A stretch of DNA of 64,000 nt, from contig JAUIMG010000004.1 in the NCBI GenBank assembly GCA_030433355.1, positions 76,260 to 140,259 of the forward strand, read 5' to 3'. Source of the DNA: Bacteroidia bacterium. GTDB taxonomy: Bacteria > Bacteroidota > Bacteroidia > Flavobacteriales_E > Vicingaceae. The translations under genes and the position numbers were made by a program. Shown piece by piece: positions 26,907-43,033 of the stretch (its first letter is position 1; the number at the start of each line of letters is the position of its first letter). The notes under the pieces are model-generated. The model did not search any database, had not been told where the DNA came from, and saw nothing but the letters and a program-made list of their open reading frames with translations.

Positions 26907-27029
26907 ACTTATCAACAGCTTAAAATGCCATCAATTCTAACTTTAGAATAAAGCACCCTATCTTATCAACAGCGGAGAAATTTCACTAGGCTTTTAGCTA
27001 CATTTATCTCTCTCAAATTATCGCTTTTT

Positions 27030-30000
27030 ATGCCCGATTTTTCGCACTTACACGTACATACCCAATACTCCCTTTTAGATGGAGCTGCACCTATCAATGC
27101 TTTGATGGAAAAGGCCAAGGGCGATAGGATGAAGGCAGTAGCGCTGACCGATCATGGGAATATGTTTGGTGCTTTTCAGTTTGTAGCTGCAGCACAGCGC
27201 CATAACATTACCCCGGTAGTTGGTTGTGAATTTTATTTGGTAGAAGATCGCTTTAAAAAAGAGTTTACCGGAGGCAAAAGAGACAAGCGCTTCCATCAAT
27301 TGCTGTTGGCAAAGAATCAAAAAGGCTATGAGAACCTTTCTAAGCTCTGTTCTTTGGGTTATATTGAGGGTTTGTACTCCAAGTACCCCCGTATCGATAT
27401 GGAGCTTCTAAAGAAGTATAAAGAGGGTTTGATTGCTACTACTTGTTGCATTGCTTCTGTAATTCAGCAAGGCATTCTCTTTAAATCGGAAGAAGAAGCA
27501 GAGAAAACCTTTGTAGAATGGTATGAGCTTTTTGGCGACGATTACTTCATAGAGCTGCAAAGACACGATCTAGGAGAGATTGATGGCACCGGCAAGACCC
27601 AAGAAGATGTGAATCAAATCTTAATGAAATGGTCGAAGAAGTACGGAGTGCCCATGATCGCCACCAACGATTCGCACTATGTAGACGAAGAAGATTGGAC
27701 GGCACATGATATTTTACTTTGCATCAATACCGGAGATAAGCTAAGTACGCCAAAAGGACAGGGGAAAGGCTATCGCTTTGGTTTTCCGAATAGCAATTTC
27801 TACTTCAAGACGCAGGCAGAAATGAACGAGCTGTTTAAAGATGTGCCAGAAGCTATCGACAATACCAATTTAGTCATCGACAAGATTACGGCACCTAAAC
27901 TAGAGCGTGATATATTGTTACCTAACTATACTCTTCCTGAAGGTTTTACCGACCAAAACGAATACCTGCGTCACATTACTTTTGAAGGAGCGAAAAGAAG
28001 GTATGGTTCCATCACCGCAGAGGTGGAACAGCGACTCAATTACGAATTGAGCGTAGTTAAAGACATGAACTTTCCTGGCTATTTCTTGATTGTGCAAGAT
28101 TTTACCACCGTTGCTAGACAAAAAGGCGTATCGGTTGGACCAGGTAGAGGTTCTGCTGCAGGATCTGCTGTGGCCTATTGCATTGGTATTACCAACATTG
28201 ACCCAATCAAATACAATCTACTCTTTGAGCGTTTCCTAAATCCGGAAAGGGTGAGCATGCCCGATATTGATATTGACTTTGACGATGAGGGAAGAAGTAA
28301 GATTATTGATTATGTGGTAGATAAGTACGGTAAAAACCAAGTAGCTCAAATTATTACCTATGGTTCTATGGCTGCAAAGAGCTCAATTAGAGATGTAGGT
28401 AGAGTGTTAGATATGCCTCTTCCTGAGGTAGATAAGATTTCAAAGATGGTGCCGGGTATGAGCCTTGGAAAGATCTTCGATAGCCAAGAAAGTGAGCTGA
28501 AGAAAATCCTAAATGCCGACGAATTTGCCCAAGTGAAAGAGATGCGGGAGATTATCTTAAGAGACGACCTTGCAGGAAAAACCTTGACCCAAGCCAAGAC
28601 TTTAGAAGGCTCGGTAAGAAATACTGGGGTGCATGCCTGCGGTATTATCATCTCGCCCGACGATATTACCAATTACGTGCCCGTTTGTACCTCTAAAGAC
28701 TCGGATTTACTGCTTACGCAGTTCGACAATAAGGTGGTGGAGGAAGCCGGCCTGTTGAAGATGGACTTCTTGGGCTTGAAAACCCTAACCATCATCAAAG
28801 ATGCCATTGCCTTGATCGAGGAGAATTATGGGGTAAAGATAGATCCAGATGAAATTCCACTAGACGACGAAAAGACCTATCAACTCTACCAAAGGGGAGA
28901 AACCAATGGAACTTTTCAGTTTGAGTCTGCCGGTATGCAGAAACATTTGAAGAATCTGAAACCCACCAATATAGAAGATTTGATTGCCATGAACGCCTTG
29001 TACCGTCCGGGTCCAATGCAGTTTATTGATTTATTCGTTTCGCGAAAGCGTGGCGATGTGCCCATAGAATACCCTCACGAGCTCTTAGGAGAGCTTTTAG
29101 AGAACACTTACGGGATTATGGTATACCAAGAGCAAATTATGCAGGCAGCGCAAATTATGGCCGGCTATAGCCTTGGAGAAGCAGACATACTGCGTCGTGC
29201 TATGGGAAAGAAGAAGATGGACGTGATGCAGCAGCAGAAGGCAAAATTTATAGAAGGCGCAGAAAAGCTACATCAGGTAGATCCAAAGAAGAGTGAAGAA
29301 GTGTTTGATATCATGCTAAAGTTTGCTGAATACGGCTTTAACCGCTCGCATTCTGCAGCCTACTCTGTGGTAGCCTTCCAAACGGCCTATTTAAAAGCCA
29401 ACTATCCAGAAGAATACATGGCTGCCGTGCTTACCAACAACATGAACGACATCAAAAAGGTGACTTTCTTTATGGAAGAATGCCGAAGAATGGGCACGCA
29501 GGTATTGGGACCAGATGTGAATGAGAGTGCCTACAAATTCACGGTAAACAAAAACAAGCAGATTCGGTTCGGCCTAGGAGCCTTAAAAGGAGTAGGAGAA
29601 GGCGCTGTAGAAGCCATTGTAAACGAACGCAAGAAAAACGGGCCCTACACTTCTATTTTCGATTTAAGCAAGCGTATTGACCTAAGAGCAGCCAATAAAA
29701 AGACCTTTGAGAGCTTGGCATTGGCCGGTGGCTTCGATTCTTTTAAGGAGGTGCATCGGGCGCAATACTTTCATGCTGTAAATGGAGAAGCGCCATTCTT
29801 AGAGAAAGCCATTCGCTTTGGCAGCATGCATCAAGAACAAGAAAATTCGGCACAAGCCTCTTTGTTTGGCGGAGAAGCAGCCATAGATATCCCTGAGCCT
29901 GAAATACCTGCTGCAGAAGAATGGGGAAGAATGGAGAAACTCTCCAAAGAGAAAGAAGTAGTGGGAATTTACCTTTCTGGCCATCCGCTTGACGATTATA

Positions 30001-30572
30001 AGTTTGAGATAGAGCAGTATTGCACCGCCAAAGTGCGCGATTTGGGCGATATGGAAGCCATGCTGAAAAAAGGAGAAGTGAAAGTGGCGGGCATAGTTAC
30101 CGAAGCACAGCATAGAACTACCAAAACTGGCAAGCCTTATGGAGTAATGGTTTTAGAGGGCTATGAAGAGAACCACCGCTTCATGTTTTTCTCCGACGAT
30201 TACATCAAATACAAGAGTTATTTAAGTACCGGCTGGTTTTTGTTTGTGGTGGGCAAGGTGCAAAAGCGCGCTTGGAACGATGAGTTGGAATTTAAAGTAA
30301 ACCGCATAGAGCTGCTCTCAGAAGTGCGTGACAAATTTTCTGAATCCATTAGTTTGAAGATTAATGTGGATGAGATAGACGAGCAGATGATTGCCTGGAT
30401 CAAGGGCTTGGAGGCAAAGAAGAAGGGAAATTGCAAGCTAGACATCTCTTTGGTAGACTATAAAGACAAATATGCAGTGAAGCTAAAATCTAGGAGTATC
30501 CTAGTAGATTTGACTAATGAGTTGATTGCAGACTTAGAAAAGAACGATAAAATAGAATTTAATGTAGTGTAA
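27030..30572 (+). CDS. dnaE: DNA polymerase III subunit alpha
   Basis: 1180 aa with a PHP domain (FSHLHVHTQYSLLDG), polymerase core motifs and an OB-fold C-terminus. Confidence 0.95.
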   Translation: MPDFSHLHVHTQYSLLDGAAPINALMEKAKGDRMKAVALTDHGNMFGAFQFVAAAQRHNITPVVGCEFYLVEDRFKKEFTGGKRDKRFHQLLLAKNQKGYENLSKLCSLGYIEGLYSKYPRIDMELLKKYKEGLIATTCCIASVIQQGILFKSEEEAEKTFVEWYELFGDDYFIELQRHDLGEIDGTGKTQEDVNQILMKWSKKYGVPMIATNDSHYVDEEDWTAHDILLCINTGDKLSTPKGQGKGYRFGFPNSNFYFKTQAEMNELFKDVPEAIDNTNLVIDKITAPKLERDILLPNYTLPEGFTDQNEYLRHITFEGAKRRYGSITAEVEQRLNYELSVVKDMNFPGYFLIVQDFTTVARQKGVSVGPGRGSAAGSAVAYCIGITNIDPIKYNLLFERFLNPERVSMPDIDIDFDDEGRSKIIDYVVDKYGKNQVAQIITYGSMAAKSSIRDVGRVLDMPLPEVDKISKMVPGMSLGKIFDSQESELKKILNADEFAQVKEMREIILRDDLAGKTLTQAKTLEGSVRNTGVHACGIIISPDDITNYVPVCTSKDSDLLLTQFDNKVVEEAGLLKMDFLGLKTLTIIKDAIALIEENYGVKIDPDEIPLDDEKTYQLYQRGETNGTFQFESAGMQKHLKNLKPTNIEDLIAMNALYRPGPMQFIDLFVSRKRGDVPIEYPHELLGELLENTYGIMVYQEQIMQAAQIMAGYSLGEADILRRAMGKKKMDVMQQQKAKFIEGAEKLHQVDPKKSEEVFDIMLKFAEYGFNRSHSAAYSVVAFQTAYLKANYPEEYMAAVLTNNMNDIKKVTFFMEECRRMGTQVLGPDVNESAYKFTVNKNKQIRFGLGALKGVGEGAVEAIVNERKKNGPYTSIFDLSKRIDLRAANKKTFESLALAGGFDSFKEVHRAQYFHAVNGEAPFLEKAIRFGSMHQEQENSAQASLFGGEAAIDIPEPEIPAAEEWGRMEKLSKEKEVVGIYLSGHPLDDYKFEIEQYCTAKVRDLGDMEAMLKKGEVKVAGIVTEAQHRTTKTGKPYGVMVLEGYEENHRFMFFSDDYIKYKSYLSTGWFLFVVGKVQKRAWNDELEFKVNRIELLSEVRDKFSESISLKINVDEIDEQMIAWIKGLEAKKKGNCKLDISLVDYKDKYAVKLKSRSILVDLTNELIADLEKNDKIEFNVV

Positions 30573-30646
30573 AAGTGTCAATATGTCGCCAAATGGTTTT
30601 GGCCTCCTATTTGAATACGTAATTTTGAAAAATAAAAACAACAGTT

Positions 30647-30967
30647 ATGGCATTAGAGTTAACAGACGCAAATTTTGAAGAAACAGTATTAAAATCAGAC
30701 AAGCCAGTATTGGTAGATTTTTGGGCAGAGTGGTGTGGACCATGTAGAATGGTTGGACCAGTAGTAGAAGAACTACACAATGATTACGAAGGTAAAGTAG
30801 TAGTAGGAAAAGTGAATGTAGATCACAATCCTGCAGTATCTGCACAGTTTGGAATTAGAAACATTCCTACGGTATTGATCTTTAAAAACGGAGAGATTGT
30901 AGACAAGCAAGTTGGTGCTGCTCCAAAATCTGCTTATGCAGATAAGTTGGATGCCCAATTGGCTTAA
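30647..30967 (+). CDS. trxA: Thioredoxin
   Basis: 106 aa with the WAEWCGPC active site. Confidence 0.9.
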   Translation: MALELTDANFEETVLKSDKPVLVDFWAEWCGPCRMVGPVVEELHNDYEGKVVVGKVNVDHNPAVSAQFGIRNIPTVLIFKNGEIVDKQVGAAPKSAYADKLDAQLA

Positions 30968-30988
30968 TTTCTTCCACAAAAAATAAAT

Positions 30989-31027
30989 AATCCCAATTTC
31001 TTGCTTTGCAGGAGGTTGGGATTTTTT
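30989..31027 (+). terminator. Rho-independent terminator after trxA
   Basis: Stem aatcccaa / ttgggatt followed by a T run. Confidence 0.65.
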
Positions 31028-31047
31028 AATATGCTTAATTTTCCCTT

Positions 31048-31977
31048 GTGCCAATAAACCTAAAAGAAACCCGTATTTACAGTCATTTGGAGCTTTTTGC
31101 CCGCCAAGTGGTAGAAGGCTTTATTACTGGCATGCACAAAAGTCCATTTCATGGTTTTTCGGTAGAGTTTGCCGAGCATCGCCAATACAACACCGGCGAA
31201 AGCACACGGCATTTGGATTGGAAGCTGTATGCCAAAACCGATAAGCTCTTTGTGAAGCGCTTTGAGGAAGAAACCAATCTTCGTTGCCGCATTATTTTGG
31301 ATGTGTCTTCTTCTATGGATTTTCCAGAAATGGACCCCAAAGAACCTACCAAAAATAAATTGGGCTTTTCTATTTATGCTGCGGCCGCTTTGATGGAGCT
31401 ATTGAAGAAGCAGCGCGATGCTTATGGCTTGAGCTTATTTGCCGAAGACATACAGCTGCATACCGAAGCCAAAACCAATGCCACCCACCAAAGGCTGATG
31501 TATGCTTATTTAGAGAAACTTTTGGACGAGCAAGAGAAGAAAGCTACCAAGCAGCAAACCTTTGCCGTAGATGCCTTACACCAATTGAGCGATATGATTC
31601 ACCGCCGATCTTTGGTGGTGATTTTTAGCGATATGCTAGACAATTCGGAACGTGCGGAAGAATTGCTTACTGCCTTGCAGCATTTGAAATACAACCAGCA
31701 TGAGGTAATTCTTTTTCATGTGGTAGACAAAAAACAAGAAGTAGATTTTGAATTTGAGAACCGCCCTTACCGCTTTATAGACTTAGAAAGTGGGGAAGAG
31801 GTAAAGCTTAACCCTGCGGAAGTGAAGGAGCATTACCAGGAGCAGATGGAAAAGCAGATGGCCGCCCTTAAGCTGCGCTGCGGACAGTATGGCATTGACC
31901 TAGTAGAGGCCGACATTAACCAAGGTTTCCACCAAATCTTAATGCCTTTCTTAAACAAGCGCAAAAAGCTGTATTAG
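31048..31977 (+). CDS. DUF58 domain protein (second, orphan copy)
   Basis: HKSPFHGFSVEFAEHRQYNTGESTRHLDW matches the DUF58 core. GTG start as in the track. No MoxR gene is adjacent. Confidence 0.8.
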   Translation: MPINLKETRIYSHLELFARQVVEGFITGMHKSPFHGFSVEFAEHRQYNTGESTRHLDWKLYAKTDKLFVKRFEEETNLRCRIILDVSSSMDFPEMDPKEPTKNKLGFSIYAAAALMELLKKQRDAYGLSLFAEDIQLHTEAKTNATHQRLMYAYLEKLLDEQEKKATKQQTFAVDALHQLSDMIHRRSLVVIFSDMLDNSERAEELLTALQHLKYNQHEVILFHVVDKKQEVDFEFENRPYRFIDLESGEEVKLNPAEVKEHYQEQMEKQMAALKLRCGQYGIDLVEADINQGFHQILMPFLNKRKKLY

Positions 31978-32085
31978 TCTTTAAAGGGATTTCAAAAGTG
32001 CCTCTCGATACATCCCGCCGAAGCGAGACAGTCGAAGTATTTTAGAACCAGTCGAAGATCTTTTAAAATCCTCTTGATGTAATAG

Positions 32086-33348
32086 CTACACCTGTTTCCC
32101 TTTCATCATCTTATTCCAATACAAGTAGGGTAAACCATATTTTTTCAACATCCATAATCTCCAATGCTCTTTGTCGCTATTGAAAACAAGCATTCTCTTT
32201 AGTTTAGGATCGGGAGTGAAATTACTGGCATAATCAAATTCTGCTAAAATCATTTTGCCATAGCCTGTAACCAATGGACAGGAAGAATAGCCATTGTAGG
32301 ACATTTGACCTAGCTTGTTTTGGGCAATCAAGCTCATTAAATGATCCACCACTACCGGTACTTGCTTTCGAATAGCTGCTCCTGTTTTTGCAGTAGGCAA
32401 AGCTGCTACATCACCTAGGCCAAAAATAAAAGGGTATTTCTTATGTTGCATGCTATGGTGATCTACATCCAACCAACCTGCATCATTTACTAGCTTTGAT
32501 TCTTGAATAAACTTAGGTGCCGTTTGAGGAGGAGCAATGTGTAGCAGGTCAAATGGAATCTCTATAATCTCCTCCCCACTTGCAATTTCTCCTAATTCAT
32601 TATCTTCATTGATTACGCACATATTCTCTTCAGGAGAAGTGTGTTTAAAGTAGATGATTTTTTTCTCCGAATCTATTTTAATGGGAGCATAGTAAGGTTT
32701 AAAATGTATTCCATAATGACCGATCACTTCCATTAAAGATTCCTTAATTGGCTTTACACCGAAGATGACACTTCCCGGAGTGGCAAAAACCACATTGCTT
32801 TTATCCTTTAGCTTATTCTTTCTAAAATAATCTGCCGCTAAATAGGCAATCTTTTGGGGTGCTCCACCGCATTTTATTGGTGTTGTAGGCTGTGTAAACA
32901 CAGCATTACCACCCTTAAAATTTTTGATTTTCTCCCAGGTGAATTCCGGATCGATGTAATTACTACAAGCTACTCCTTTTTCTAGAGCCTCAGGCAGGCC
33001 TTCTATTAGCTCCGGTGCCATCACCAAACCTGGTGCCACTACCAAATAATCGTATTCCAAGCTGCCACTACTTTTGGTGTTCACAATTTTGTTATCGTGG
33101 TCGAAGGTGGTGGCGTAATCCTTTACCCACTTAACTCCCTTGGGAATTAAATCTATCGTTTTGCGTTCTGTTTTCTTAAAATCAAAAGTTCCTGCACCTA
33201 CCAAAGTCCATGCTGGCTGGTAATAATGCTTTTCTGAAGGATCTATAATGGCGATGGAAAGATTTTTGTCTTTCTTTTTTAATTGTGCAGCAGTCATTAT
33301 TCCGGCTGTACCTGCTCCTATAATTACAATTTGGTAATGTGTTGTCAT
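32086..33348 (-). CDS. sqr: Sulfide:quinone oxidoreductase (type II SQR-like FAD oxidoreductase)
   Basis: FAD motif IVIIGAGTAG and conserved Cys contexts PIKCGGAPQK and YSSCPLVTG. Adjacent to the persulfide dioxygenase gene. Confidence 0.75.
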   Translation of the reverse strand: MTTHYQIVIIGAGTAGIMTAAQLKKKDKNLSIAIIDPSEKHYYQPAWTLVGAGTFDFKKTERKTIDLIPKGVKWVKDYATTFDHDNKIVNTKSSGSLEYDYLVVAPGLVMAPELIEGLPEALEKGVACSNYIDPEFTWEKIKNFKGGNAVFTQPTTPIKCGGAPQKIAYLAADYFRKNKLKDKSNVVFATPGSVIFGVKPIKESLMEVIGHYGIHFKPYYAPIKIDSEKKIIYFKHTSPEENMCVINEDNELGEIASGEEIIEIPFDLLHIAPPQTAPKFIQESKLVNDAGWLDVDHHSMQHKKYPFIFGLGDVAALPTAKTGAAIRKQVPVVVDHLMSLIAQNKLGQMSYNGYSSCPLVTGYGKMILAEFDYASNFTPDPKLKRMLVFNSDKEHWRLWMLKKYGLPYLYWNKMMKGKQV

Positions 33349-33463
33349 GGCTTTTAGATTTAAGGATGTATAAATCTATTCTTTTCCATGAGTAAGTAAA
33401 GTAACTTCTGTTACACAAAGCGCCGAAGCCATAACCAAATAAGGCCTATAATAATTTAGAGAT

Positions 33464-33499
33464 AAAAAAACTCCTGCATGAAGATGCAGGAGTTTTTTT
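33464..33499 (-). terminator. Strong bidirectional hairpin terminator between the pdo-rhodanese gene and sqr
   Basis: Perfect 10-bp stem actcctgcat/atgcaggagt with loop gaag, flanked by an A6 run and a T6 run. Confidence 0.75.
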
Positions 33500-33515
33500 A
33501 AATATTATGTTGGTA

Positions 33516-34928
33516 TTACAACATGGTAGTTGGACAAACATATTCTGTTTTTGGGAGCTCTGTTTTGGCCATCTCTTTAAAACCACCTCGTACATCTACG
33601 AAATTGTCCCATCCTCTTTGTTTTAATATAGAGGCTGCAATCATACTGCGATAACCTCCAGCACAGTGAAGCACAAACTTCTCCTCTTTGGGAAACTCTG
33701 CTAAATGCTGATTGATTTCATTGAGAGGAATATTGATGGCATCTACCAGGTGTTCCGAATCAAACTCGCTCTTTTTGCGGATATCAATGACTTTCACCTG
33801 CTTGCTCTTCCACTCTTTTTCTAAGTCTTGCGCGTTGATACGTTGAAAAGAATCTACTTCCTTGCCGCTAGCAGCCCAAGTAGCAAAACCACCATCTAAA
33901 TAGCCAATGGAATAATCATAGCCTACACGAGATAAACGGGTAATGGCTTCTTCTTCTTTTCCTACTTCGGTAATCAATAGTATTTTTTGTTTTACATCTG
34001 GAATCATTTCTCCCACCCATTGGGCAAAGTTTCCCTCTAAACCAATGTTAACACTCTTGGGTATAAAGCCTTTGGCAAAATCTTCGGCATCTCTAGTATC
34101 TAAAACCAAAGCATCTGTTTCATTGGCTACTACTTCAAACTCTTCGGCAGATAGTGGTTTAGCACCTCTTTCCATCACGGTATCTAAGCTATCGTAACCC
34201 TTGATGTTCATAATTACATTCTGTGGAAAATAGCCCGGAGGGGTAGTTAAGCCATCCAAAAGGGTTTCTATGAACTCTTCCTTGCTCATGTCTTGCAGGG
34301 CATAGTTCGTTTTCTTCTGATTGCCAAGGGTGTCTGTAGTTTCTTTACTCATGTTTTTACCACAGGCAGAACCCGCGCCATGGTTTGGAAATACAATTAA
34401 GTCGTCGCTCAGTGGCATAATTTTATTGCGCAGTGAATCGTACAAATGCGAAGCCAACTTTTCTTGGGTTAGATCTGCAATAACGTGCTGCGCCAAATCT
34501 GGTCGACCTACATCTCCAATAAATAAGGTATCTCCAGAAATTATTCCATATTCGTCTCCCTTTTCATCAATCAAGAGGTAGGTAGAACTTTCCATGGTAT
34601 GACCGGGAGTGTGAATAAGTCGAACGGTGTACTTACCTACTTTAAATTCTTGACCATCTTCTGCAATAATGGCTTCATAAGCCGGCTTGGCTGTAGGACC
34701 AAAAACGATTTGCGCTCCAGTTTTCTTTTTTAAATCCAAATGCCCACTCACAAAGTCTGCATGAAAGTGCGTTTCAAAAACGTATTTGATTTTAGCATGA
34801 TCATTCTTTGCTCTATCGATGTAAGGCTGCACTTCTCTCAAAGGATCAAAAATGGCAGCCTCTCCATTATTTTCTATGTAGTATGCTGCATGCGCAATGC
34901 AGCCGGTATAAATTTGTTCTATTTTCAT
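33516..34928 (-). CDS. MBL-fold persulfide dioxygenase fused to rhodanese domains
   Basis: Metallo-beta-lactamase motif THFHADFVSG and a C-terminal rhodanese active-site loop HCAGGYRS. Confidence 0.8.
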   Translation of the reverse strand: MKIEQIYTGCIAHAAYYIENNGEAAIFDPLREVQPYIDRAKNDHAKIKYVFETHFHADFVSGHLDLKKKTGAQIVFGPTAKPAYEAIIAEDGQEFKVGKYTVRLIHTPGHTMESSTYLLIDEKGDEYGIISGDTLFIGDVGRPDLAQHVIADLTQEKLASHLYDSLRNKIMPLSDDLIVFPNHGAGSACGKNMSKETTDTLGNQKKTNYALQDMSKEEFIETLLDGLTTPPGYFPQNVIMNIKGYDSLDTVMERGAKPLSAEEFEVVANETDALVLDTRDAEDFAKGFIPKSVNIGLEGNFAQWVGEMIPDVKQKILLITEVGKEEEAITRLSRVGYDYSIGYLDGGFATWAASGKEVDSFQRINAQDLEKEWKSKQVKVIDIRKKSEFDSEHLVDAINIPLNEINQHLAEFPKEEKFVLHCAGGYRSMIAASILKQRGWDNFVDVRGGFKEMAKTELPKTEYVCPTTML

Positions 34929-35120
34929 GGCTTTATTTTTTTTATTCTGCGTATAAAATTAGTTGCGATCTGATTAATCTTTCGTTACAAAAGTTACACT
35001 TGCCAGGGAGTTCTACTATGATAAAAATCAGTTCGATAGAATTTTGAACTTCGAGAAGCCCAAAAAAGTACCAAAGCATTTCTTAATCTAAAAGGATTCT
35101 TAAAATTGATCTTAATTACC

Positions 35121-35434
35121 ATTGCTTATAGCCTCACAGCATTTGAAATAGAAGCAGCATGAGGTAATTCTTTTCCATGTGGTAGATAAAAAGCAAGATT
35201 AGATTTTGAATTTGAAAACCGCCCTTACCGCTTTATAGACTTAGAAAGTGGGGAAGAGGTGAAGCTAAAGCCTGTAGAAGTGAAGGAACACTAGCAAGAG
35301 CAGATGGAAAAACAGATGGCCGCCCTAAAGCTGCGCTGCGGACAGTATGGCATTGGCTTGGTAGAGGCCGATATGAATCAAGGTTTTCACTAAATCTAAA
35401 TGCCTTTTTTGAATAAAAAGAAGATTTGTATTAA
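35121..35434 (+). pseudogene. Decayed duplicate of the 3' end of the DUF58 gene (31662-31977)
   Basis: My hand alignment found about 36 differences over about 280 aligned nt. There is a 1-nt deletion near 35195. In-frame stops at 35292-35294 (TAG replacing TAC) and 35391-35393 (TAA replacing CAA). Confidence 0.85.
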
Positions 35435-35886
35435 ACTACTCTCTCTGCTTCTCTTTTAATTGCTGCATTTCGCTCTCCTAAAAAGCGTTTCATGTAGTTT
35501 TTTAGAATGACTGCATTGAAGAGTTTTCCTAAAATTCCAAAAGGAGATTCAAAATGGAAATGATCTACCATGCTTGTAACCCCATTTACTTCGGTGAATA
35601 GATGTTCGTGTTTTATAGATTTGAAAATTCCTTTCACCATTTCATCAGTAAATGAATGCGGAGCATTCATGGCCGTAATTTTAGTGGTGAGTTGCTGTTT
35701 AATACCAAAATGAACTGCCTCCCAGGTAACGGTTTCTCCTAATCCAATTAAACCACTTGTTCTGCCCGCAATGGCTTTTTCTTTCGTTTTAGATGCTGCT
35801 TCTTGATGAAAATCAATACTGCGAGACAAATCGAATATGACTGGAATAGGTGCTTTGATTTTAGTGGTGATGTGAATTAGGGGCAT
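35431..35886 (-). CDS. SRPBCC (START/Bet v1-like) family protein
   Basis: 151 aa. The pattern PLIHITTKIKAPIPVIFDLSRSIDFH...ETVTWEAVHFGIKQ is typical of small SRPBCC proteins conserved in flavobacteria-like genomes, as far as I recall. Confidence 0.7.
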   Translation of the reverse strand: MPLIHITTKIKAPIPVIFDLSRSIDFHQEAASKTKEKAIAGRTSGLIGLGETVTWEAVHFGIKQQLTTKITAMNAPHSFTDEMVKGIFKSIKHEHLFTEVNGVTSMVDHFHFESPFGILGKLFNAVILKNYMKRFLGERNAAIKREAERVV

Positions 35887-36327
35887 TTACTTTGCTAATA
35901 AATCATTCGGATCAACAACAGGTAAAATAAAATTAGATAAAGCAGTTCCTTGAAATCGAGTCATTAAGATGCCACGAGAAGTTGAGTAGGTGATAGATCC
36001 AAGTGCATTTCCTAATCCTGAGCTTACTAATTCTTGTCCATCTTCTTTTGCAATCAGTTCGTTTAAGTTGTCAACAGAAAACCAATAGATGAAATGAAAC
36101 TTACCCACTGCTTCTTTTTGGTCTGTGCTTTCAGTTTCTACTGAAATACGAAAGTTGGTTTTTACTAACTTCTCTTGTAAGTTATGTCCCATTTCAAAAT
36201 CAACATCAAACTTGAAGTTGGTCACTTTGTTATTATCATGTTCCTCAGGACAATCTATTGCACCACTTAATATGGAAAAATGAAGCATCTTAATTTTTTC
36301 AGGAATTAGTTTACCAAAATCTTTCAT
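35887..36327 (-). CDS. Hypothetical protein, candidate SecB-like chaperone of a TAC module
   Basis: 146 aa. An aligned-by-eye beta-beta-beta-beta-alpha pattern and the C-terminal stretch LGNALGSITYSTSRGILMTRFQGTALSNFILPVVDPNDLL resemble E. coli SecB [41 protein letters not shown]. The start overlaps the antitoxin stop (TAATG). Confidence 0.4.
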   Translation of the reverse strand: MKDFGKLIPEKIKMLHFSILSGAIDCPEEHDNNKVTNFKFDVDFEMGHNLQEKLVKTNFRISVETESTDQKEAVGKFHFIYWFSVDNLNELIAKEDGQELVSSGLGNALGSITYSTSRGILMTRFQGTALSNFILPVVDPNDLLAK

Positions 36328-36809
36328 TAGGCAATTTGTCTTTTTGAATTAGCACTTTTCGAATCATAGGAATGTTCCATTTCTCTAACTTGAGTAATTT
36401 CTTGAACTCTCGAATCACTTCTTACAGAAATGGTAGAAGAGAAGTTATTGCTTGCAACTACTTTCATTATTGCATCAGGCGTTTTGAATGGTTTATTCTC
36501 AGTTAATCCTGAGACATAAGCGTATTGATGTAACTCTCTTTTCAAAAGCTCTGATTTACTTTCCAATTCAAAATGAGGTATAAGATCTAGCCTAAGAAGA
36601 ATAGAAACAATTTTTGAATAACTAAAATTTATATCTCCTGAGTTTAAAATTTGAGACATTCTTCCTGCGCTAATGTCTAAATACTTTGCCATGTCTTTTT
36701 GCTTGAAGCTTCTAGCTTCCATATATCGAACAATGGCATCGTATATTTTACCGTTTAATTCTTCTACCCAGTATCCTGGTTCAGAAATTACTTGTTCTCT
36801 TGTTATCAT
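36327..36809 (-). CDS. XRE-family HTH antitoxin (HigA-like) with a C-terminal extension of about 75 aa
   Basis: HTH segment FKQKDMAKYLDISAGRMSQILN. 4-nt overlap (ATGA) with the upstream toxin-like gene. Confidence 0.65.
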   Translation of the reverse strand: MITREQVISEPGYWVEELNGKIYDAIVRYMEARSFKQKDMAKYLDISAGRMSQILNSGDINFSYSKIVSILLRLDLIPHFELESKSELLKRELHQYAYVSGLTENKPFKTPDAIMKVVASNNFSSTISVRSDSRVQEITQVREMEHSYDSKSANSKRQIA

Positions 36810-37204
36810 AGCTTATGATTTTCGTTATAATAATCTATTATAATATTCTTTATTCTGTCGATATCTTGCTGTTGGCTTCCTTTTAAACCTCCTCCAACAA
36901 TTACTCTGCCTTTAGGATCTTGAAATAAATAAATTCTTATTTCGTTTTTCTTGGCTTCATACATTTTGCATGGCAGCCTATCGTCTTTTATTGTTCTAAA
37001 CTTGGCTTCAGGTAAGCGAATCGAGTTACAGCTGTGTTCAATAATTTTAAATGCGGATAAGAGAGATTTTGTGAGGTTTCCATCTTTTTCAATTTTAGCA
37101 TTAAACTGTTGCAATAGATTTTTATCGTTTTTGCAGAGCTCAAAAACCTTGATTTTGGTTTTCGGGCTGACTAGTTCCGACAATATTAACGAATAATTTC
37201 CCAA
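36806..37204 (-). CDS. HigB/Gp49-like (RelE/ParE superfamily) toxin
   Basis: 132 aa. The C-terminal core KMYEAKKNEIRIYLFQDPKGRVIVGGGLKGSQQQDIDRIKNII fits the phage Gp49/HigB pattern (..yElR...yRi.yf....ivll.g..K). Toxin-first gene order, as in higBA. Confidence 0.55.
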   Translation of the reverse strand: MGNYSLILSELVSPKTKIKVFELCKNDKNLLQQFNAKIEKDGNLTKSLLSAFKIIEHSCNSIRLPEAKFRTIKDDRLPCKMYEAKKNEIRIYLFQDPKGRVIVGGGLKGSQQQDIDRIKNIIIDYYNENHKL

Positions 37205-37209
37205 AAAGT

Positions 37210-37225
37210 TTAGTTATAACTAAAG
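37210..37225. promoter_or_regulatory. Perfect 16-bp palindrome TTTAGTTATAACTAAA, candidate operator of the TA(C) operon
   Basis: Lies 6 nt upstream of the toxin start codon, in the only sizeable (63-nt) gap of the gene string. Confidence 0.55.
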
Positions 37226-37267
37226 TTTAACAATTTTAAGCATTTTTATTTACTAACTTAATCCGCA

Positions 37268-38398
37268 TTAAACAGCTGATTTTATTGCACTGTTCAATTT
37301 CGCGACAGGCTTTTTAAAAACATTTACCATTCGCTCAGATGTTTCAATCAAAAAATCAATCATTTTAGGCCAATCTTCTTTTTCATAAATAGAAACTCCT
37401 TGCATTTCAAATTTTATCCTAGAGGAAACTTTATCATTCATTCGTTCCCAAACTAGTTTACCATTAAAATCATTTTCAATTGCATCTTTTTTAGCTTCTA
37501 AAAAATCAAAACATTTTTTATTCTCCAATTGAGCCCCTCTGTTAATATAAATTTCCGCTCTTGTATACGTTCTAGTACCAACTATATTTAGGTTTATACC
37601 GCTCATGCCAATCCCTATTCCTATCCAATTGTCTTTAGAAGGAGAGATATTAGAAAAGAGATTGTTTTTCTGATTACTTGCTTTTAGAAACTCAGCCCAA
37701 AAGTCTAAACGAACCTGATATCTATGCTTTAAGTTTTCTTGAACAGTTATTTCTTCTTGAGCTTTTGATGCCATGCTTATGGTATAATCTTGAGCATCTA
37801 CCACAGGGAGTATTTGGTCTAAGTTCAAAAAAAGTTTATCTTCTAATTTATAAGGAGTGACTTTAAAACATTGAATTCGAATTTGAAAATTCATTAGCCA
37901 TAGTACCGTAGAGGTTACTTCTTTTCTAAACTTAGCAGCAATAAGAATAATACGCTGTTTTGAACCTTCGTTAATGAGTACTTCACTATAATCTTCTTTA
38001 CCTAGAAACTCTGCCAAGAGGGTTTCTGCATCTTTACCTTTATTTTGAGCGTTCAAATAATCTTGAAATATTCTTTTAATGTCCTCTTTTGATAATGTAC
38101 TGCAATAGGAAGCATACTTTAGTGCTTGCCAAGTAACATCTTTACCTGAATCGTCTAATTTATTTTCAATTATAACTAGGTTTCCTTGTTTGTCTAGTGC
38201 TAATAAATCAAGTCTTTCTCTTGTTTCTTGAAATCCATCAAACTCTTTTTGAATGATTAGAAACTCTTCATCTGCAAGGCATGTTGGATCATTTGCAATC
38301 CATTCTTGCAAATGCTCTCTTTCTTTAAAGCCTAATTCAGAAAAAGTACATCTCTCTAATTTCTCAATAATATTATTATCCTGATTTATTCGATACAT
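37268..38398 (-). CDS. PD-(D/E)xK nuclease-like N-terminal domain fused to a DUF4268-like C-terminal domain
   Basis: RLDLLALDKQGNLVIIENK supplies a D...ExK motif at residues about 63-80. The C-terminal half resembles DUF4268 as I remember it. Confidence 0.5.
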   Translation of the reverse strand: MYRINQDNNIIEKLERCTFSELGFKEREHLQEWIANDPTCLADEEFLIIQKEFDGFQETRERLDLLALDKQGNLVIIENKLDDSGKDVTWQALKYASYCSTLSKEDIKRIFQDYLNAQNKGKDAETLLAEFLGKEDYSEVLINEGSKQRIILIAAKFRKEVTSTVLWLMNFQIRIQCFKVTPYKLEDKLFLNLDQILPVVDAQDYTISMASKAQEEITVQENLKHRYQVRLDFWAEFLKASNQKNNLFSNISPSKDNWIGIGIGMSGINLNIVGTRTYTRAEIYINRGAQLENKKCFDFLEAKKDAIENDFNGKLVWERMNDKVSSRIKFEMQGVSIYEKEDWPKMIDFLIETSERMVNVFKKPVAKLNSAIKSAV

Positions 38399-38423
38399 AA
38401 TTGTAGTATTTTATTTGGCTTTA

Positions 38424-38672
38424 CTATGAATTCCTTAATCTAACTAGGTTCGGTTCCCTAAACTCAAATAAATGAGCATAGTTCTTCCCTGCATGTGTGT
38501 TTGGGTGAGTTCTTAATCGTATTTGCTTTGCATTTGCAAAGCCAACATCCTTTTTATAGTAGAGCCTTCTATTGGTAATTTCATTACTAATTTCTTCTAA
38601 AGTAGCTGTTCTGTTTTCTTTGCTTAAAAGAACTACTGCTATTGCTTCGTGTAATTTTAAAATACGTTCCAT
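38424..38672 (-). CDS. Small winged-helix (HARE-HTH-like) protein
   Basis: 82 aa. LHEAIAVVLLSKENRTATLEEISNEI...LFEFREPNLVRLR resembles the HARE-HTH/Mrr_N type wHTH. Weak call made by eye. Confidence 0.35.
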   Translation of the reverse strand: MERILKLHEAIAVVLLSKENRTATLEEISNEITNRRLYYKKDVGFANAKQIRLRTHPNTHAGKNYAHLFEFREPNLVRLRNS

Positions 38673-38688
38673 TTTCTATTTCTAAAAA

Positions 38689-39189
38689 CTAACCCAAAAT
38701 CAACTGCAATACCATAGCTGCTGCGGCTACCAATATACTTAACCATGCGATGTATTCATTTCTCTTTGCTCTAGCTTTTGTTTTTGGGTAGTCATCAATT
38801 ATATTTTTCTTTAACTCAATATCGAGTTCTAAGGCTTTTCTCTCAATTTTATCTTTTTCTGCTTTTTCTGTATGGGCTTCTCTTGCTCTTTCCATCTGAC
38901 CGTCCCAATAAAACTTCATGCCTCCCTGTTGCATGAAATCAAGAAGAAGACCTGTGCCTTCAACCATCCAATTATTATCTTCTGAGTGAGTAACTCTAAT
39001 AACTTCTTTGGGTTGATTCTCTTCAATTATTCTTAAAAGATGATTTACTTGATCGAAATTTTTCTTCACTAAGAATGCATCCAAACTAATCTTATCTGTA
39101 AACGCAATATGGTTATGCTGCTTTAAAAGGAACTTAAATAATAAATCTGCTTCTTGCGACTGGCCTTTTGTTAATTGAAAAGAGTTCAT
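38689..39189 (-). CDS. Hypothetical tail-anchored membrane protein
   Basis: 166 aa with a soluble N-terminal domain, a charged helical stretch (EKAEKDKIERKALELDIELKK), and a single C-terminal TM helix YIAWLSILVAAAAMVLQLILG. Confidence 0.45.
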   Translation of the reverse strand: MNSFQLTKGQSQEADLLFKFLLKQHNHIAFTDKISLDAFLVKKNFDQVNHLLRIIEENQPKEVIRVTHSEDNNWMVEGTGLLLDFMQQGGMKFYWDGQMERAREAHTEKAEKDKIERKALELDIELKKNIIDDYPKTKARAKRNEYIAWLSILVAAAAMVLQLILG

Positions 39190-39193
39190 TTTT

Positions 39194-40003
39194 CTATGCT
39201 TTTAATGGCTCATTATTTTCATCTAATTGAGAAGTTTTCTTTGAATATTTATCTATTTGAATCAGATAATTAAACAAGAAACCAGGAATATATGGATGTT
39301 TATAACCACATGCTTTGCATATTTTATCGTCATTAACCTTTTCATTCTTTTTTAAGAAATCAGAGAATGCGGGATAAATTTTAGTGGATTGCATTAGAGC
39401 CAACCTTTTTGAAAAGAAAAATTTTTGGTCAGAAGTTAAAGTTGAATCTTCAATTGTTTCATATAAATTTATCCAATCTCCAAGTATTCCAAATATTTGA
39501 TAAAAGTGAACAGCTTTAGGATACCTCTCGGTATCGTGAGACTCTGCGTTATATCCTCCAGAAACGGTAGAATTTTGAACCGATTGGAAAATCCCTTCCA
39601 CCCCTAAATAATTTATATTATTTTTCTGAAAGTTAAATGAACTAATATCAATAGATAGTTGATTATATAAAGATTGTATGTTATTACGATCAATATCTTC
39701 CCTTCTTTCATCTCTCTCTCTATCTATTTGTCTCTGAATCTCTTTGTTTGCATTAACTTGTGCTAGAAAGGCAAAATAAACTAGAATAGAGCCAATTAAA
39801 CTTGTTATCGGCGCTGTTATTCCACCTATTGTATCTCCAATTTCATTTGGAGAACCAAAAGATAAGAAACCCACATCTTGTGTGAATAAATAAGGTGCAA
39901 TTATAACGAATAGGATTCCTAGAATTAATAAAAATAATGCACGTTTTGTGAAACTTATTTTAATCTCTTTTTTATCTTCCTTTTTATCTTCCTTTGGTTC
40001 CAT
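39194..40003 (-). CDS. Two-TM membrane protein, putative AbiC-like abortive-infection protein
   Basis: 269 aa. TM1 is ALFLLILGILFVIIAPYLF. The GDTIGGITAPITSLIGSILVYFAFLAQ segment resembles the Pfam putAbiC signature as I recall it. The C-terminal domain contains KICKACGYKHPY. Confidence 0.45.
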   Translation of the reverse strand: MEPKEDKKEDKKEIKISFTKRALFLLILGILFVIIAPYLFTQDVGFLSFGSPNEIGDTIGGITAPITSLIGSILVYFAFLAQVNANKEIQRQIDRERDERREDIDRNNIQSLYNQLSIDISSFNFQKNNINYLGVEGIFQSVQNSTVSGGYNAESHDTERYPKAVHFYQIFGILGDWINLYETIEDSTLTSDQKFFFSKRLALMQSTKIYPAFSDFLKKNEKVNDDKICKACGYKHPYIPGFLFNYLIQIDKYSKKTSQLDENNEPLKA

Positions 40004-40014
40004 AATACTACTTC

Positions 40015-41397
40015 CTATTTATACTCCCCCTCCCCCTCAGCAGCTACTCCCAACTCAACCTCCTCCATCTTATCATAAGCACCTTTTACCGAGACCTGAC
40101 CATTCATCAACATCGGCAACAACCAATCGCGAAGAGTGGAAAGTTGTTGGTTTTGAATTGAGTTTGATAGAATATTTTCTATTGTGGGTTTGAGAAGGGT
40201 TGAGAATTTTTTCAGAATTTCATTTTTTGGTTTTATAACTACAATTGAAGAAAAATCTCCTTTATTCATATTCGCGAATGTATTTCCTGTTTTAGCTTTT
40301 GCAAATTTGAAGTAGTCTTTGAGGTAGAAATACAAGAAATATTCATTTTCCTTATTCTCACAAACAACAGTGTTTAGTTGTTGGTTGGTTTGTGAATTTT
40401 CTGTTGCAAAAGCAACAAGCCCAGGAGAGGCTATGCAAGTAACACAGATTGCACCGTTCGGAATAAATTTATTTTTTTGTGTACTTGCTCCTAGTTCAGT
40501 AAGGCTTAATTCTGTTGAAGTTATGTGCATATTTCCTCTAACATCACCAATACAGATAAATGGTATATCACCATTAAAATTTTCATCAACTTTTGTAGAA
40601 GGGGTTTTACCTGTTATAATATTGGATTCTATTTCGCTTAATTCCTTCACCTCCCAACCCTCAGGTATCTCTCTCTTCAATTCTTCATTATAAACCATTT
40701 TGCCGCCAGAGGATTTGTAGGGCTTGCCAATCGAAGCCTTGGCGGAGTTTGGCTTGTTTTCGTCAGGAAACCCATCCTTCGCTGAAGCTTCGGATGGGAA
40801 CTCAAACTGCACAAACCAATAATCATAAATCAGTTTGGCCATACCTTCTAACTCCGCATTGATTTTGTTGTTCAGCTCTATTTTTTTGTTAATTGCATAA
40901 AGAAAATCTCCTATTTTCTTTTGTTCATCATAAGGAGGTAGGATTAAATCTAAATAGGAAAAAATTTGCTCATTAAGACTCGCTCGCAAAGTCATGATAG
41001 CATTGTTATTCATGGTTTTTCTAAAAAGATCACTCCTTAAGTAGAAAGCCATGAATTTATGATATGTAATATCCTTCTGAGTTGGTCTAAGTCTTTTTAG
41101 GAATCCACTATAAGAGGCCACTTCATAATTCCTAACGGCAACAGAGCTCATTCCTAATTCGTCGAGTGTTTCACTTGTTCTCGTCAAAAAAATATCACCT
41201 TCCAAAATAGAATACTTGCATTTTTCAACCTCAGAAATATCCATTAAATCAGGTAAATCCTCTGGCAAAAAGTGATCTTTAAATACTGTGCTAAAAGATA
41301 AAAATGGAGAACCATGTCCTGCTTGTTCAGGTTTGGATGAAATCCCTGAACTCATTTCATACAAATCAGAAAACTTATAAGTCACAAGTTTATACAT
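40015..41397 (-). CDS. hsdS: Type I restriction-modification specificity subunit
   Basis: Two target-recognition domains separated by conserved helices (LPPYDEQKKIGDFL, KLIYDYWFVQFEFP, LRDWLLPMLMNGQV). Confidence 0.9.
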   Translation of the reverse strand: MYKLVTYKFSDLYEMSSGISSKPEQAGHGSPFLSFSTVFKDHFLPEDLPDLMDISEVEKCKYSILEGDIFLTRTSETLDELGMSSVAVRNYEVASYSGFLKRLRPTQKDITYHKFMAFYLRSDLFRKTMNNNAIMTLRASLNEQIFSYLDLILPPYDEQKKIGDFLYAINKKIELNNKINAELEGMAKLIYDYWFVQFEFPSEASAKDGFPDENKPNSAKASIGKPYKSSGGKMVYNEELKREIPEGWEVKELSEIESNIITGKTPSTKVDENFNGDIPFICIGDVRGNMHITSTELSLTELGASTQKNKFIPNGAICVTCIASPGLVAFATENSQTNQQLNTVVCENKENEYFLYFYLKDYFKFAKAKTGNTFANMNKGDFSSIVVIKPKNEILKKFSTLLKPTIENILSNSIQNQQLSTLRDWLLPMLMNGQVSVKGAYDKMEEVELGVAAEGEGEYK

Positions 41398-43015
41398 GCT
41401 TCAATCCCTCCAAATTCTTTTCAATCTCTGTCTCTAACTTTTTCCCTTCCGCAAACAACTCACATAAATTGCTTTTAAAGCCGTTTAGCTTTAATTCAAA
41501 TTCTTCTGGTGTAATTTCGATGTATTCAATTTTTACTTCAAAGTATTGCCCTGCACTTAAGCTGAAGTTTTTGGCTTTTATGTCTTCGTAAGAAACCACT
41601 ACCGAAAAGTCATCTTCGGCTCTTTTGGCATTAAACACCTCAATAATGCGGTCTTCTTCCGCCGCAGCAAGCAGGGTCTTTTGGTTTTTACCATCTTTTA
41701 CTTTGCTGCCCAAATTAGAGGCATCTACCAATACCACATCGCCTTTGTTGGCTTTGTCTAAAAATAAAATAGAAACGTTGGTACCTGTGGTGGCAAAAAT
41801 ATTAGAGGGCATGCTTACCACTCCGGCCAACATTTTATCTTTTACCAACTTTTCGCGTATTTTCTTGTCAATACCGCTTTGGGCCGTAATAAAACCCGTA
41901 GGCACCACTATGGCAGCTTTGCCATTGGGTTTTAAAGAAGCCATAATGTGTTGAATAAACAACAAATAAATGGCCATGCTGTCTTTTTTACTTTTAGGCA
42001 CATTGGGCACGCCGGCAAAAAAACGTTCTTGGTTTTGTTTGTTGTCCAAATCATCGCGGTAATCCGAAAAATCTAATTTAAAGGGTGGGTTAGAAACCAC
42101 ATAGTTGAATTTGGCCAAACTGCCGTCTTTTTCTTTATGATAGGGCGAGAGTATGGTATTGCCCTTTACCACATTCGGCAGGGAATGCACCAAATCGTTT
42201 AAAATTAAATTCAAACGCAAAAGAGAAGAAGACTTTTGAGAAATATCTTGAGTGTAAATGGTGCATTGGTCTTCGCCAATTTGGTGCGCCAAATTCATAA
42301 GCAAAGTACCAGAGCCAGCAGAAGGATCGTAACAGGTTACATTTTTCACTTCTTTATCTACTAGGCAACGCGCCATAATTTTAGAAACAGCATGTGGGGT
42401 AAAGTATTCCGCATATTTTCCACCACTATCTGAATTGTAATCTTTAATCAGGTATTCAAAAATGGCAGAATAAAAATCAAACTTTTCTTCGAAAATATGC
42501 TCAAAGCTAAAATCTACCAATTTGTTAATGATGGCTTTGCAAAAGGCATCTTTATCGTCTACAATGTACCTACTCAATTCATCAAAAAGAGTCAGCTTTT
42601 CTCCTGTGTAGGTCATTACGGAGAATAAATCGCTGTTTACTTTGGCAATATCCAATAAGGTGGCATCAAAGATTTGAGAAAAGTTCTTTTCGTTTTGCCG
42701 CGCAAACAAATTGCTTATAAAATGATCTCGTTGAATTACAGCGGTAGATTCACCCAATTGAGCGACTAGCATTTCAAATTCATCATCGCTATAGCCATCA
42801 ATGGTTTCTTGCCATTTATCTCCTGCAGCCTTTAGTTTAGCATCTATTTCCTTGGTATTGTGTATGAATTTATCATTTAATAGTTTGTACAAGAAAACCT
42901 GCGTAATCACTTTAAATTCATTGCCATCATTACCTAAACCATAGGTAGCACAAACACTTTTTAACTCATCAATGAGTGCTCTTGTTTTCTGCTCAAAATC
43001 TTTCGTTCTATCCAT
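41390..43015 (-). CDS. hsdM: Type I restriction-modification DNA methyltransferase subunit
   Basis: SAM motif DPSAGSGTLL and catalytic motif VVSNPPFK. 8-nt overlap with hsdS. Confidence 0.9.
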   Translation of the reverse strand: MDRTKDFEQKTRALIDELKSVCATYGLGNDGNEFKVITQVFLYKLLNDKFIHNTKEIDAKLKAAGDKWQETIDGYSDDEFEMLVAQLGESTAVIQRDHFISNLFARQNEKNFSQIFDATLLDIAKVNSDLFSVMTYTGEKLTLFDELSRYIVDDKDAFCKAIINKLVDFSFEHIFEEKFDFYSAIFEYLIKDYNSDSGGKYAEYFTPHAVSKIMARCLVDKEVKNVTCYDPSAGSGTLLMNLAHQIGEDQCTIYTQDISQKSSSLLRLNLILNDLVHSLPNVVKGNTILSPYHKEKDGSLAKFNYVVSNPPFKLDFSDYRDDLDNKQNQERFFAGVPNVPKSKKDSMAIYLLFIQHIMASLKPNGKAAIVVPTGFITAQSGIDKKIREKLVKDKMLAGVVSMPSNIFATTGTNVSILFLDKANKGDVVLVDASNLGSKVKDGKNQKTLLAAAEEDRIIEVFNAKRAEDDFSVVVSYEDIKAKNFSLSAGQYFEVKIEYIEITPEEFELKLNGFKSNLCELFAEGKKLETEIEKNLEGLKHV

Positions 43016-43033
43016 TGTTATCTTCTGCTTTGT

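Follow-up and report, generated by a model that had tools for sequence, protein, structure and literature searches.

A direct repeat of the DUF58 gene end around an sqr-pdo pair in a Vicingaceae genome, a probable footprint of recombination between two haplotypes

Single crossovers with circularised molecules produce direct duplications of 109-950 bp that flank the insert, and in homology-facilitated illegitimate recombination (HFIR) one end is joined through homology and the other illegitimately (Amarir-Bouhram et al. 2011, PMC3240628); for HFIR, de Vries & Wackernagel 2002 and Prudhomme et al. 2002 are the sources given in PMC5361080. In Rhs and T6SS effector-immunity arrays, C-terminal displacement leaves orphaned 3' ends (Kirchberger et al. 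2017, PMC5361080; also Jackson et al. 2009, as cited there). Pairs of sqr and pdo genes with PDO-rhodanese fusions serve sulfide oxidation in heterotrophic bacteria (PMC9163753). The locus described here lies in a window of 64,000 nt (the whole stretch of DNA that was analysed) and carries an sqr-pdo pair between two copies of a DUF58 gene end, named P and D. The repeat is genuine and records an ordinary kind of gene exchange among related bacteria, with no new mechanism. Features are listed below in window coordinates, and loci from other genomes are designated by L numbers.

31048-31977 (+): intact DUF58 gene, 309 aa from a GTG start (PF01882, E 2e-35)
31662-31977 (+): copy P, 316 nt, the final 105 codons of the intact gene, functional
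31978-32085 (unstranded): spacer between the convergent genes DUF58 and sqr, with pieces in common with L036 (throughout) and L035 (to ~32038)
32086-33348 (-): sqr, homolog of type II (mitochondrial-type) sulfide:quinone oxidoreductase, 420 aa (PF07992)
33463-33500 (unstranded): 17-bp palindromic hairpin between pdo and sqr, like a bidirectional terminator
33516-34928 (-): pdo, MBL-fold persulfide-dioxygenase-like and rhodanese domains (CstB-like), 470 aa (PF00753 + PF00581)
34929-35055 (unstranded): upstream flank of pdo, homologous to the pdo flank of L053
35056-35120 (unstranded): orphan filler of ~65 nt, ending at joint J1 (35120/35121), which is read as illegitimate
35121-35434 (+): copy D, 314 nt, in the same orientation as P, pseudogene fragment of a second DUF58 allele
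35431-35886 (-): SRPBCC gene, with joint J2 at ~35434/35435
35887-48508 (-): defence island, syntenic with L049 of another genus
49738-50856 (-): gene of 372 aa, far edge of the variable region in the comparison with L035, where its homolog is directly convergent to DUF58

The DUF58 gene is the last gene of a conserved dnaE-trx-DUF58 block (synteny with dnaE and trx in 29 relatives) and has an ω of 0.04-0.05 against its orthologs. The block is a mosaic among three lineages, which shows active homologous exchange at the locus. An earlier reading made from the sequence alone had described a direct repeat of the DUF58 3' end with a dead distal copy, and the repeat was borne out: P and D are 86.6-88% identical at the nucleotide level (~87%), BLAST within the window's own genome confirmed the significance of the match (E 1.2e-104), and the genome holds these two copies only. 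The homology begins abruptly at 31662/35121, D being 5'-truncated and spanning DUF58 codon 205 to the stop, and the DNA between the copies measures 3143 nt (31978-35120). In the homologous frame, D contains four stops, at 35149-35151 (TAC to TAG), 35292-35294 (TAC to TAG), 35391-35393 (CAA to TAA) and 35397-35399 (TTA to TAA), and two 1-nt deletions, near 35195 and near 35415-35422. The sequence-only reading had correctly listed the deletion near 35195 and the stops at 35292 and 35391, and had overlooked the first and last of these stops and the second deletion; its gene labels DUF58, sqr and MBL-rhodanese hold. The longest block identical between P and D (44 nt, 31759-31802) is also conserved in the orthologs of L033 and L035, so constraint alone may explain why the copies agree there. 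A search deeper in the island for a third, older piece of DUF58 gave no match at E 1e-3 or better, and no second DUF58 3' fragment was found in 40 relatives.

Within the cargo, residues 3-417 of the sqr product match human mitochondrial SQOR (PDB 6oi5) full-length (E 1e-96); the product is a full-length homolog of type II SQR with predicted activity, and sqr is present in 15 of the 87 family genomes. The pdo product carries PF00753 followed by two PF00581 stretches, and its residues 3-453 match PDB 3tp9 (E 1e-68) and PDB 3r2u (E 7e-57), a full-length match; we take 3r2u to be CstB. It is a CstB-like PDO-rhodanese fusion, again of predicted activity, with ~80% amino acid identity across Bacteroidota. 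As in the described sqr-pdo pairs with PDO-rhodanese fusions (PMC9163753), a type II SQR homolog stands beside an MBL-fold PDO with rhodanese domains, but here the strong hairpin at 33463-33500 separates the two genes and no regulator gene is adjacent. The 65-nt filler on the far side of the pdo flank matches nothing elsewhere in the genome and none of the loci retrieved for comparison.

Divergence between P and D amounts to dS 0.67 and dN 0.061 (ω 0.09). As yardsticks, functional orthologs have an ω of 0.02-0.05, and ~0.5 would be expected of a pseudogene evolving neutrally ever since it was duplicated in situ. Distances between lineages in the genus are dS 0.81-0.99 for dnaE and 0.80 for DUF58 between the window and L033. 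Because the ω of 0.09 lies far below that of in-situ decay, P and D are read as two functional alleles as far apart as the lineages of the genus and recently joined, and D would have gained only ~4% neutral changes since they came together. The repeat had been called decayed; most of its 13% difference is instead synonymous divergence between functional alleles, and the changes specific to D are mostly nonsense or missense. The first 67 nt of the repeat contain 8 D-specific and 0 P-specific changes, an asymmetry that correction for the scan leaves weak (p 0.04, or 0.21 with adjacent double changes merged). It gives a slight hint that P and D may be reciprocally chimeric; a crossover position inside the repeat, drawn from the same asymmetry, was rejected for its weak significance.

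At the distal end, the TAA of D (35432-35434) overlaps the stop of the convergent SRPBCC gene (35431-35433, minus strand), as had been pointed out, and the last three codons and the stop of SRPBCC come from the reverse complement of the end of D. The homology of SRPBCC to its relatives ends at 35441-35444, and its C-terminus is clipped at the joint with D (REAERVV before the stop in the window, REAESQSSKN before the stop in relatives). From this overlap, DUF58/SRPBCC had been proposed as the ancestral junction, which did not survive comparison: no relative has it, SRPBCC stands in other contexts in L049-L052, and the joint clipped the protein. The island contains a three-gene toxin-antitoxin-like module, a DUF4268 protein, three small genes, type I R-M genes (hsdS/M/R), a patatin gene and a NERD gene. 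Its nucleotide identity to L049 is 94.5% for hsdR, 91.4% for hsdM and 80.6% for the SRPBCC-DUF4268 block, and core genes are ~63-75% identical at the amino acid level in the other genus, against 80-94% identity for the island. On sequence comparison, the island beyond D is the demonstrably mobile, horizontally transferred part, so that D, instead of being the displaced native end, could just as well be an edge that hitch-hiked in with the island. In the 372-aa gene at the far edge, positions 2924-3345 of L035 correspond to window 49749-50170 with 82% nucleotide identity.

Among relatives, L036 (a 2.8-kb contig) is colinear with window 30717-32531, comprising DUF58, the spacer and the 3' end of sqr. 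It shares the left junction; sqr is truncated there, and a second DUF58 fragment is not visible. Over the 3' 446 nt of the window sqr, identity to L036 is 89.9% (dS 0.63±0.12, about that of core genes). The alternative already offered in the sequence-only reading, import from a relative that carries sqr downstream of DUF58, is directly supported by this contig. Of the two arrangements that this reading had asked about among relatives, the DUF58-sqr junction does exist, and DUF58 directly convergent with SRPBCC was found in none. In L035, where the DUF58 protein is identical, another gene lies downstream, and L033 has yet another neighbour, giving four arrangements downstream of DUF58 in four genus-level sequences; sqr is never beside DUF58 in other genera. 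When metagenome contigs were searched for a 22-mer specific to the genus, with third codon positions left degenerate, 71 loci were returned, none of them genus-level (best DUF58 70% at the amino acid level). Exact-protein look-ups with the window sqr, the window trx and the L034 trx gave no new contigs, and in the 90% clusters of sqr, pdo and SRPBCC the L053 pdo was the sole further member.

The repeat probably arose when two haplotypes recombined at a hotspot that lies downstream of DUF58, through one homologous exchange and one illegitimate joint. The two DUF58 alleles would derive from two lineages of one Vicingaceae genus, with ~87% nucleotide identity between lineages. Haplotype H1 would be dnaE-trx-DUF58-spacer-sqr-pdo, and haplotype H2 would have DUF58 and then, right at its stop codon, the SRPBCC-ended defence island. 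DNA of one lineage would have entered the other, by homologous exchange within shared sequence on one side and illegitimate joining at 35120/35121 on the other; the route may have been HFIR with linear DNA or, if the fragment had circularised, a single crossover of the Campbell type. The outcome would be one intact DUF58 (with P) and a non-functional second 3' end (D), which later acquired the ~4% of neutral changes, and no dedicated recombinase would be required. In favour of this history stand the repeat itself, an allele-level divergence between its copies, a relative with the H1 junction, a mobile island, two sharp joints and the lack of a recombinase; as for HFIR or a single crossover, the alleles belong to different lineages, homology is lost abruptly once, and a relative (L036) has the donor-type arrangement. 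It counts against it that homologous exchange at ~13% divergence is inefficient. Beyond pdo, the right-hand end of H1 is known for 159 nt only (L053), neither parental haplotype is seen whole, and no genome was found with the DUF58/SRPBCC-island arrangement of H2. The import may have been of sqr-pdo and P into an H2 genome or of the island and D into an H1 genome; neither direction is favoured by how P, D and the 5' half compare in pairwise identity with L033 and L035, nor by the dnaE-trx-DUF58 mosaic.

Site-specific insertion, at the DUF58 3' end, of a small module made up of sqr-pdo and a replacement for that end, by a recombinase acting in trans or since lost, is unlikely. The geometry would fit, with an intact gene bearing a new 3' end, the cargo and a displaced old 3' end, and the 44-nt identical block could be the core. 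The 19-nt motif AAAGTGCCTCTCGATACAT lies at 31995-32013 in the DUF58-sqr spacer, left of sqr, and is found in the same orientation upstream of pdo in L053, but it belongs to a palindromic spacer of which several pieces have been rearranged, and the genome has it only once. The pdo flank of the window keeps a 21-nt block with L053 at 34983-35003 and has an 11-nt deletion after 35033, where L053 has the motif. As candidate genome-wide repeat elements, GTGCCTCTCGATAC and TTCGAGAAGCC were both rejected, each having a single occurrence. The asymmetry of P- and D-specific changes is what a crossover near 31730-31740 predicts, yet it is weak after correction. Pfam scans of all ORFs of at least 90 aa in 27 to 61 kb of the window detected no recombinase; the five genome matches to tyrosine recombinase (PF00589) all lie outside the 143.6-kb contig of the window, and serine recombinase (PF00239) has no match in the genome. 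No recombinase is thus present in the 3.1-kb cargo, the 17.7-kb variable region or the whole 143.6-kb contig. Also against such a module are the second DUF58 3' fragment, seen in 0 of 40 relatives, and the DUF58-sqr adjacency, absent in other genera, and since the L036 sqr is as diverged as core genes, sqr-pdo is not a recently spreading module. The repeat had been presented as the classic footprint of integration into a gene 3' end; the recombination footprint and the dead gene end stand, and the small self-contained integrating element is not supported.

A broader proposal, in our view quite doubtful, is that in this Vicingaceae genus the DUF58 3' end serves as a dedicated site where modules are stacked independently of any recombinase. 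Repeated C-terminal-displacement events would there add metabolic (sqr-pdo) and defence modules, each with a fresh gene end, and a trans-acting factor would recognise, as its recombination signal, the palindromic TCGA-rich spacer with the 19-nt motif that is found on either side of sqr-pdo.

In-situ duplication of the DUF58 3' end in its own lineage, followed by long neutral decay of D, is very improbable. It would suit such a history that both copies point the same way on one chromosome with D alone broken, but ω is 0.09 and not ~0.5, and P has 11 lineage-specific changes, all 11 synonymous, level with the 12 of the L033 ortholog. P, D and L033 form a trichotomy (informative sites 4/4/4) and sites that group P with D are not in excess. 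Over the right-hand 245 nt, the neutral decay of D (9/245 sites) is several-fold too small for the P-D synonymous distance, the synonymous branch of P having 11/~61 (Fisher p 3e-4). Assembly of haplotypes from two co-occurring strains, conceivable for a 39-contig draft when related haplotypes co-occur in public metagenomes, can be set aside as just as improbable, since four stops and two frameshifts are not expected in the functional allele of a co-occurring strain, the joins at 35120/35121 and 35434/35435 have no shared sequence to mislead a k-mer assembler, and estimated contamination is 0.16%.

Read as recombination between two haplotypes, the locus offers a clean, dated example of accessory DNA stacked beside a core gene without mobile-element machinery, in which D would testify that haplotypes ~13% apart recombined, recently relative to the split of their lineages. 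For annotation it calls for caution, as an 87%-identical 'decayed' repeat may be mostly pre-existing allelic divergence and not age. Compared with integrase islands in gene 3' ends (attL/attR), the locus likewise has a 3'-end direct repeat that brackets accessory DNA and leaves the gene intact, but there is no integrase, the repeat is 87% identical and not a near-identical core, and no recurrence at the site was seen outside the genus. With Rhs and T6SS arrays it shares a conserved 5' anchor, an incoming 3' end with cargo and an old 3' end orphaned downstream; in contrast to these, DUF58 is a housekeeping-type gene with a conserved C-terminus and not a polymorphic toxin, and there is a single orphan and not an array, D being possibly a displaced end or the hitch-hiking edge of the island. 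HFIR and Campbell-type integration resemble it in one homologous junction, one sharp non-homologous junction and no dedicated recombinase, although the event here is deduced from one natural genome, the homologous partners are ~13% apart, and the usual result of classic HFIR is a deletion where here it is a duplication. As in the integration of circularised fragments (PMC3240628), an anchor duplication flanks foreign DNA, of 314-316 bp here against 109-950 bp.

The direct repeat of the DUF58 3' end described by the sequence-only reading is real and its coordinates are correct, as established with a repeat finder, MAFFT and BLAST against the genome. The features concerned are the following:

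31048-31977, + strand: intact DUF58 gene
31662-31977, + strand: copy P, the last 105 codons of this gene (repeat finder, MAFFT)
35121-35434, same direction as P: copy D, a DUF58 pseudogene fragment (repeat finder, MAFFT)

The copies share 86.6-88% identity (repeat finder and MAFFT), and exactly two are present in the window's own 2.9-Mb genome (BLAST, E 1e-104 for P). Relative to P, D carries two 1-nt deletions in the alignment and four homologous-frame stops (35149, 35292, 35391 and 35397), of which the sequence-only reading had correctly listed the second and third and missed the others; the overlap that it noted between the TAA of D and the stop of the convergent SRPBCC ORF is borne out.

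The 3143 nt between the copies hold two genes. One encodes a type II sulfide:quinone oxidoreductase homolog (sqr; human SQOR matched full-length, E 1e-96). The other (pdo) codes for an MBL-fold protein that also has rhodanese domains, as seen from Pfam and from matches over the full length to 3tp9 and 3r2u. A 17-bp palindrome with a perfect stem, TAAAAAAACTCCTGCATGAAGATGCAGGAGTTTTTTTA, lies between pdo and sqr (33463-33500), and the two genes may form something other than a simple operon. Upstream of pdo, the 21-nt block CGTTACAAAAGTTACACTTGC (34983-35003), whose pdo strand contains GTAACTTTTGTAAC, is identical in L053, a relative's locus (about 99-79, reverse strand), although dS between the two pdo genes is 1.17; it is a candidate for an operator or a promoter element.

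Changes within the repeat were polarised with L033 and L035, two loci of relatives. Private changes number 11 in P (all synonymous), 12 in L033 and 17 in D (mostly nonsense or missense), and the sites grouping P+D, P+L033 and D+L033 number 4 each. Between P and D, dS is 0.67, dN 0.061 and ω 0.09 (Nei-Gojobori); functional orthologs have ω of 0.02-0.05, and dnaE dS between the lineages of the genus is 0.81-0.99. The synonymous distance between P and D thus matches that between the genus's lineages, and the excess dN of about 0.04 measures the time of D as a pseudogene, which is short compared with the divergence of the alleles. Over the 245 nt on the right, the rate of private changes is well below that of P (9/245 per site in D, 11/~61 per synonymous site in P; Fisher p 3e-4). 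Low ω, lineage-level dS and little decay of D together indicate that functional DUF58 ends from two lineages were joined fairly recently. An in-situ duplication with D neutral ever since would give ω of about 0.5, and was rejected on the observed 0.09. The first 67 nt of the repeat, with 8 D-private and 0 P-private changes, hint at a reciprocal crossover near 31730-31740. Once corrected for the scan, the signal is weak (p 0.04, or 0.21 when adjacent double changes are merged).

All 29 family-level relatives that were examined keep the dnaE-trx-DUF58 block, and in the 1.5 kb downstream of DUF58 sqr, pdo and SRPBCC are absent from every one of them. By the names that relatives bear, the family is Vicingaceae. 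The reference set is without other species of the genus; close relatives come solely from metagenome assemblies. The samples behind the relatives are ERR9769276, ERR9769288, ERR9769289 and ERR9769297, together with ERZ26858995, ERZ27316891 and ERZ27249344.

Arrangements downstream of DUF58 in the four genus-level sequences (amino acid identity of DUF58 to the window in brackets)
Window: sqr-pdo, D, then a 13-kb defence island (three-gene toxin-antitoxin-like module, DUF4268, type I R-M, patatin, NERD)
L033 (94%): two DUF6090 genes
L035 (90%, protein same as L036): homolog of window gene 49738-50856
L036 (90%, protein same as L035): last 446 nt of sqr, unrelated genes beyond

Four arrangements in four sequences make the DUF58 3' end a hotspot. 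L035 and L036, contigs from sister samples with an identical DUF58 protein, are common for the first 84 nt past DUF58 (stop codon included) and diverge completely thereafter (L035 2784-3345 vs L036 1267-2755), L035 into the homolog of 49738-50856 and L036 into the truncated sqr and other genes; this difference shows the hotspot to be polymorphic within a population. L036 is colinear with window 30717-32531 through trx, DUF58 and the spacer into sqr, where it is clipped from the right by other DNA, which shows that replacement from the right happens at this locus. The sqr fragment has diverged from the window's about as much as core genes (dS 0.63±0.12, ω 0.037); it follows that DUF58 and sqr have been neighbours since the lineages split, and that sqr-pdo is not an element that has spread recently. 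In the family, sqr has a patchy distribution, occurring in 15 of 87 genomes with at most 63% amino acid identity, and was not found beside DUF58 in other genera.

The island right of D shares synteny with L049, which comes from another genus, and the nucleotide identities (hsdR 94.5%, hsdM 91.4%, SRPBCC-DUF4268 block 80.6%) are far above the core-gene similarity of those genera; the island therefore moves horizontally. In the comparison of 38694-41400 with L049 2008-5196, homology between the two genera is lacking in the hsdS specificity regions and in the three small genes behind hsdS, which lie between the well-conserved hsdM/hsdR (91-94%) and the DUF4268-SRPBCC block (81%); the island itself is modular. 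SRPBCC contexts differ in L049-L052, in none of which SRPBCC is next to DUF58, and homology to the window ends at 35441-35444 in all four. The SRPBCC C-terminus reads REAERVV* in the window (35431-35443) and REAESQSSKN* or REAESG* in six close homologs, and its last codons and stop are supplied by the end of the DUF58 pseudogene, read as reverse complement. Since they come from D, it was the junction that cut the SRPBCC gene short and gave it a new stop; the homology stop and altered C-terminus thus make the D|SRPBCC joint a scar, formed in a genome in which the stop codon of that DUF58 copy was still required.

Both boundaries of D are sharp: homology begins abruptly at 35120|35121, after about 65 nt without match anywhere, and ends at D's own stop codon. 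The dnaE-trx-DUF58 block (26909-31984) is a mosaic among three lineages. L034 is nearest to the window for most of dnaE and for trx, which differs by 1 amino acid from that of L034 and by 9 from that of L033; L033 is nearest at 30300-30500 and, from about 30900 on, throughout DUF58, with 97% identity over the 90 nt of 31558-31647. Homologous exchange is therefore active at the locus, and a single such exchange combined with one illegitimate joint is the simplest route. It could have proceeded by homology-facilitated illegitimate recombination of a linear fragment, or by a single crossover with a circularised fragment, a process that experimentally gives direct duplications of 109-950 bp (PMC3240628). 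Entry of sqr-pdo with P into a genome having DUF58|island, and entry of D and the island into one having DUF58-sqr-pdo, fit equally well. Of the two explanations in the sequence-only reading, recombination import from a relative with DUF58-sqr-pdo is the better, and L036 has the DUF58-sqr adjacency.

Its other explanation, integration into the gene's 3' end, would require a site-specific mini-island served by a recombinase in trans: no tyrosine recombinase was found on the whole 143.6-kb contig and no serine recombinase in the genome. The geometry speaks for it most, together with a 19-nt motif, AAAGTGCCTCTCGATACAT. This motif lies left of sqr in the window (31995-32013, 18 nt past the DUF58 stop) and recurs with the same orientation upstream of the L053 pdo (35-53, reverse strand); but it occurs once in the window's genome and is one of the several pieces into which a palindromic spacer has been shuffled, the spacers of the window, L035 (motif at 2885-2901) and L036 being shuffled versions of one TCGA-rich palindrome. 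In the window's right flank, after 35033, 11 nt of the motif are deleted. An assembly artefact is unlikely, D having stops and frameshifts and the joints being without shared sequence.

Recombination at a variable locus has left the repeat as a scar of a known type. No new mechanism is involved, but the case is useful as a dated example; the outcome resembles the orphaned 3' ends of Rhs/T6SS loci (PMC5361080).
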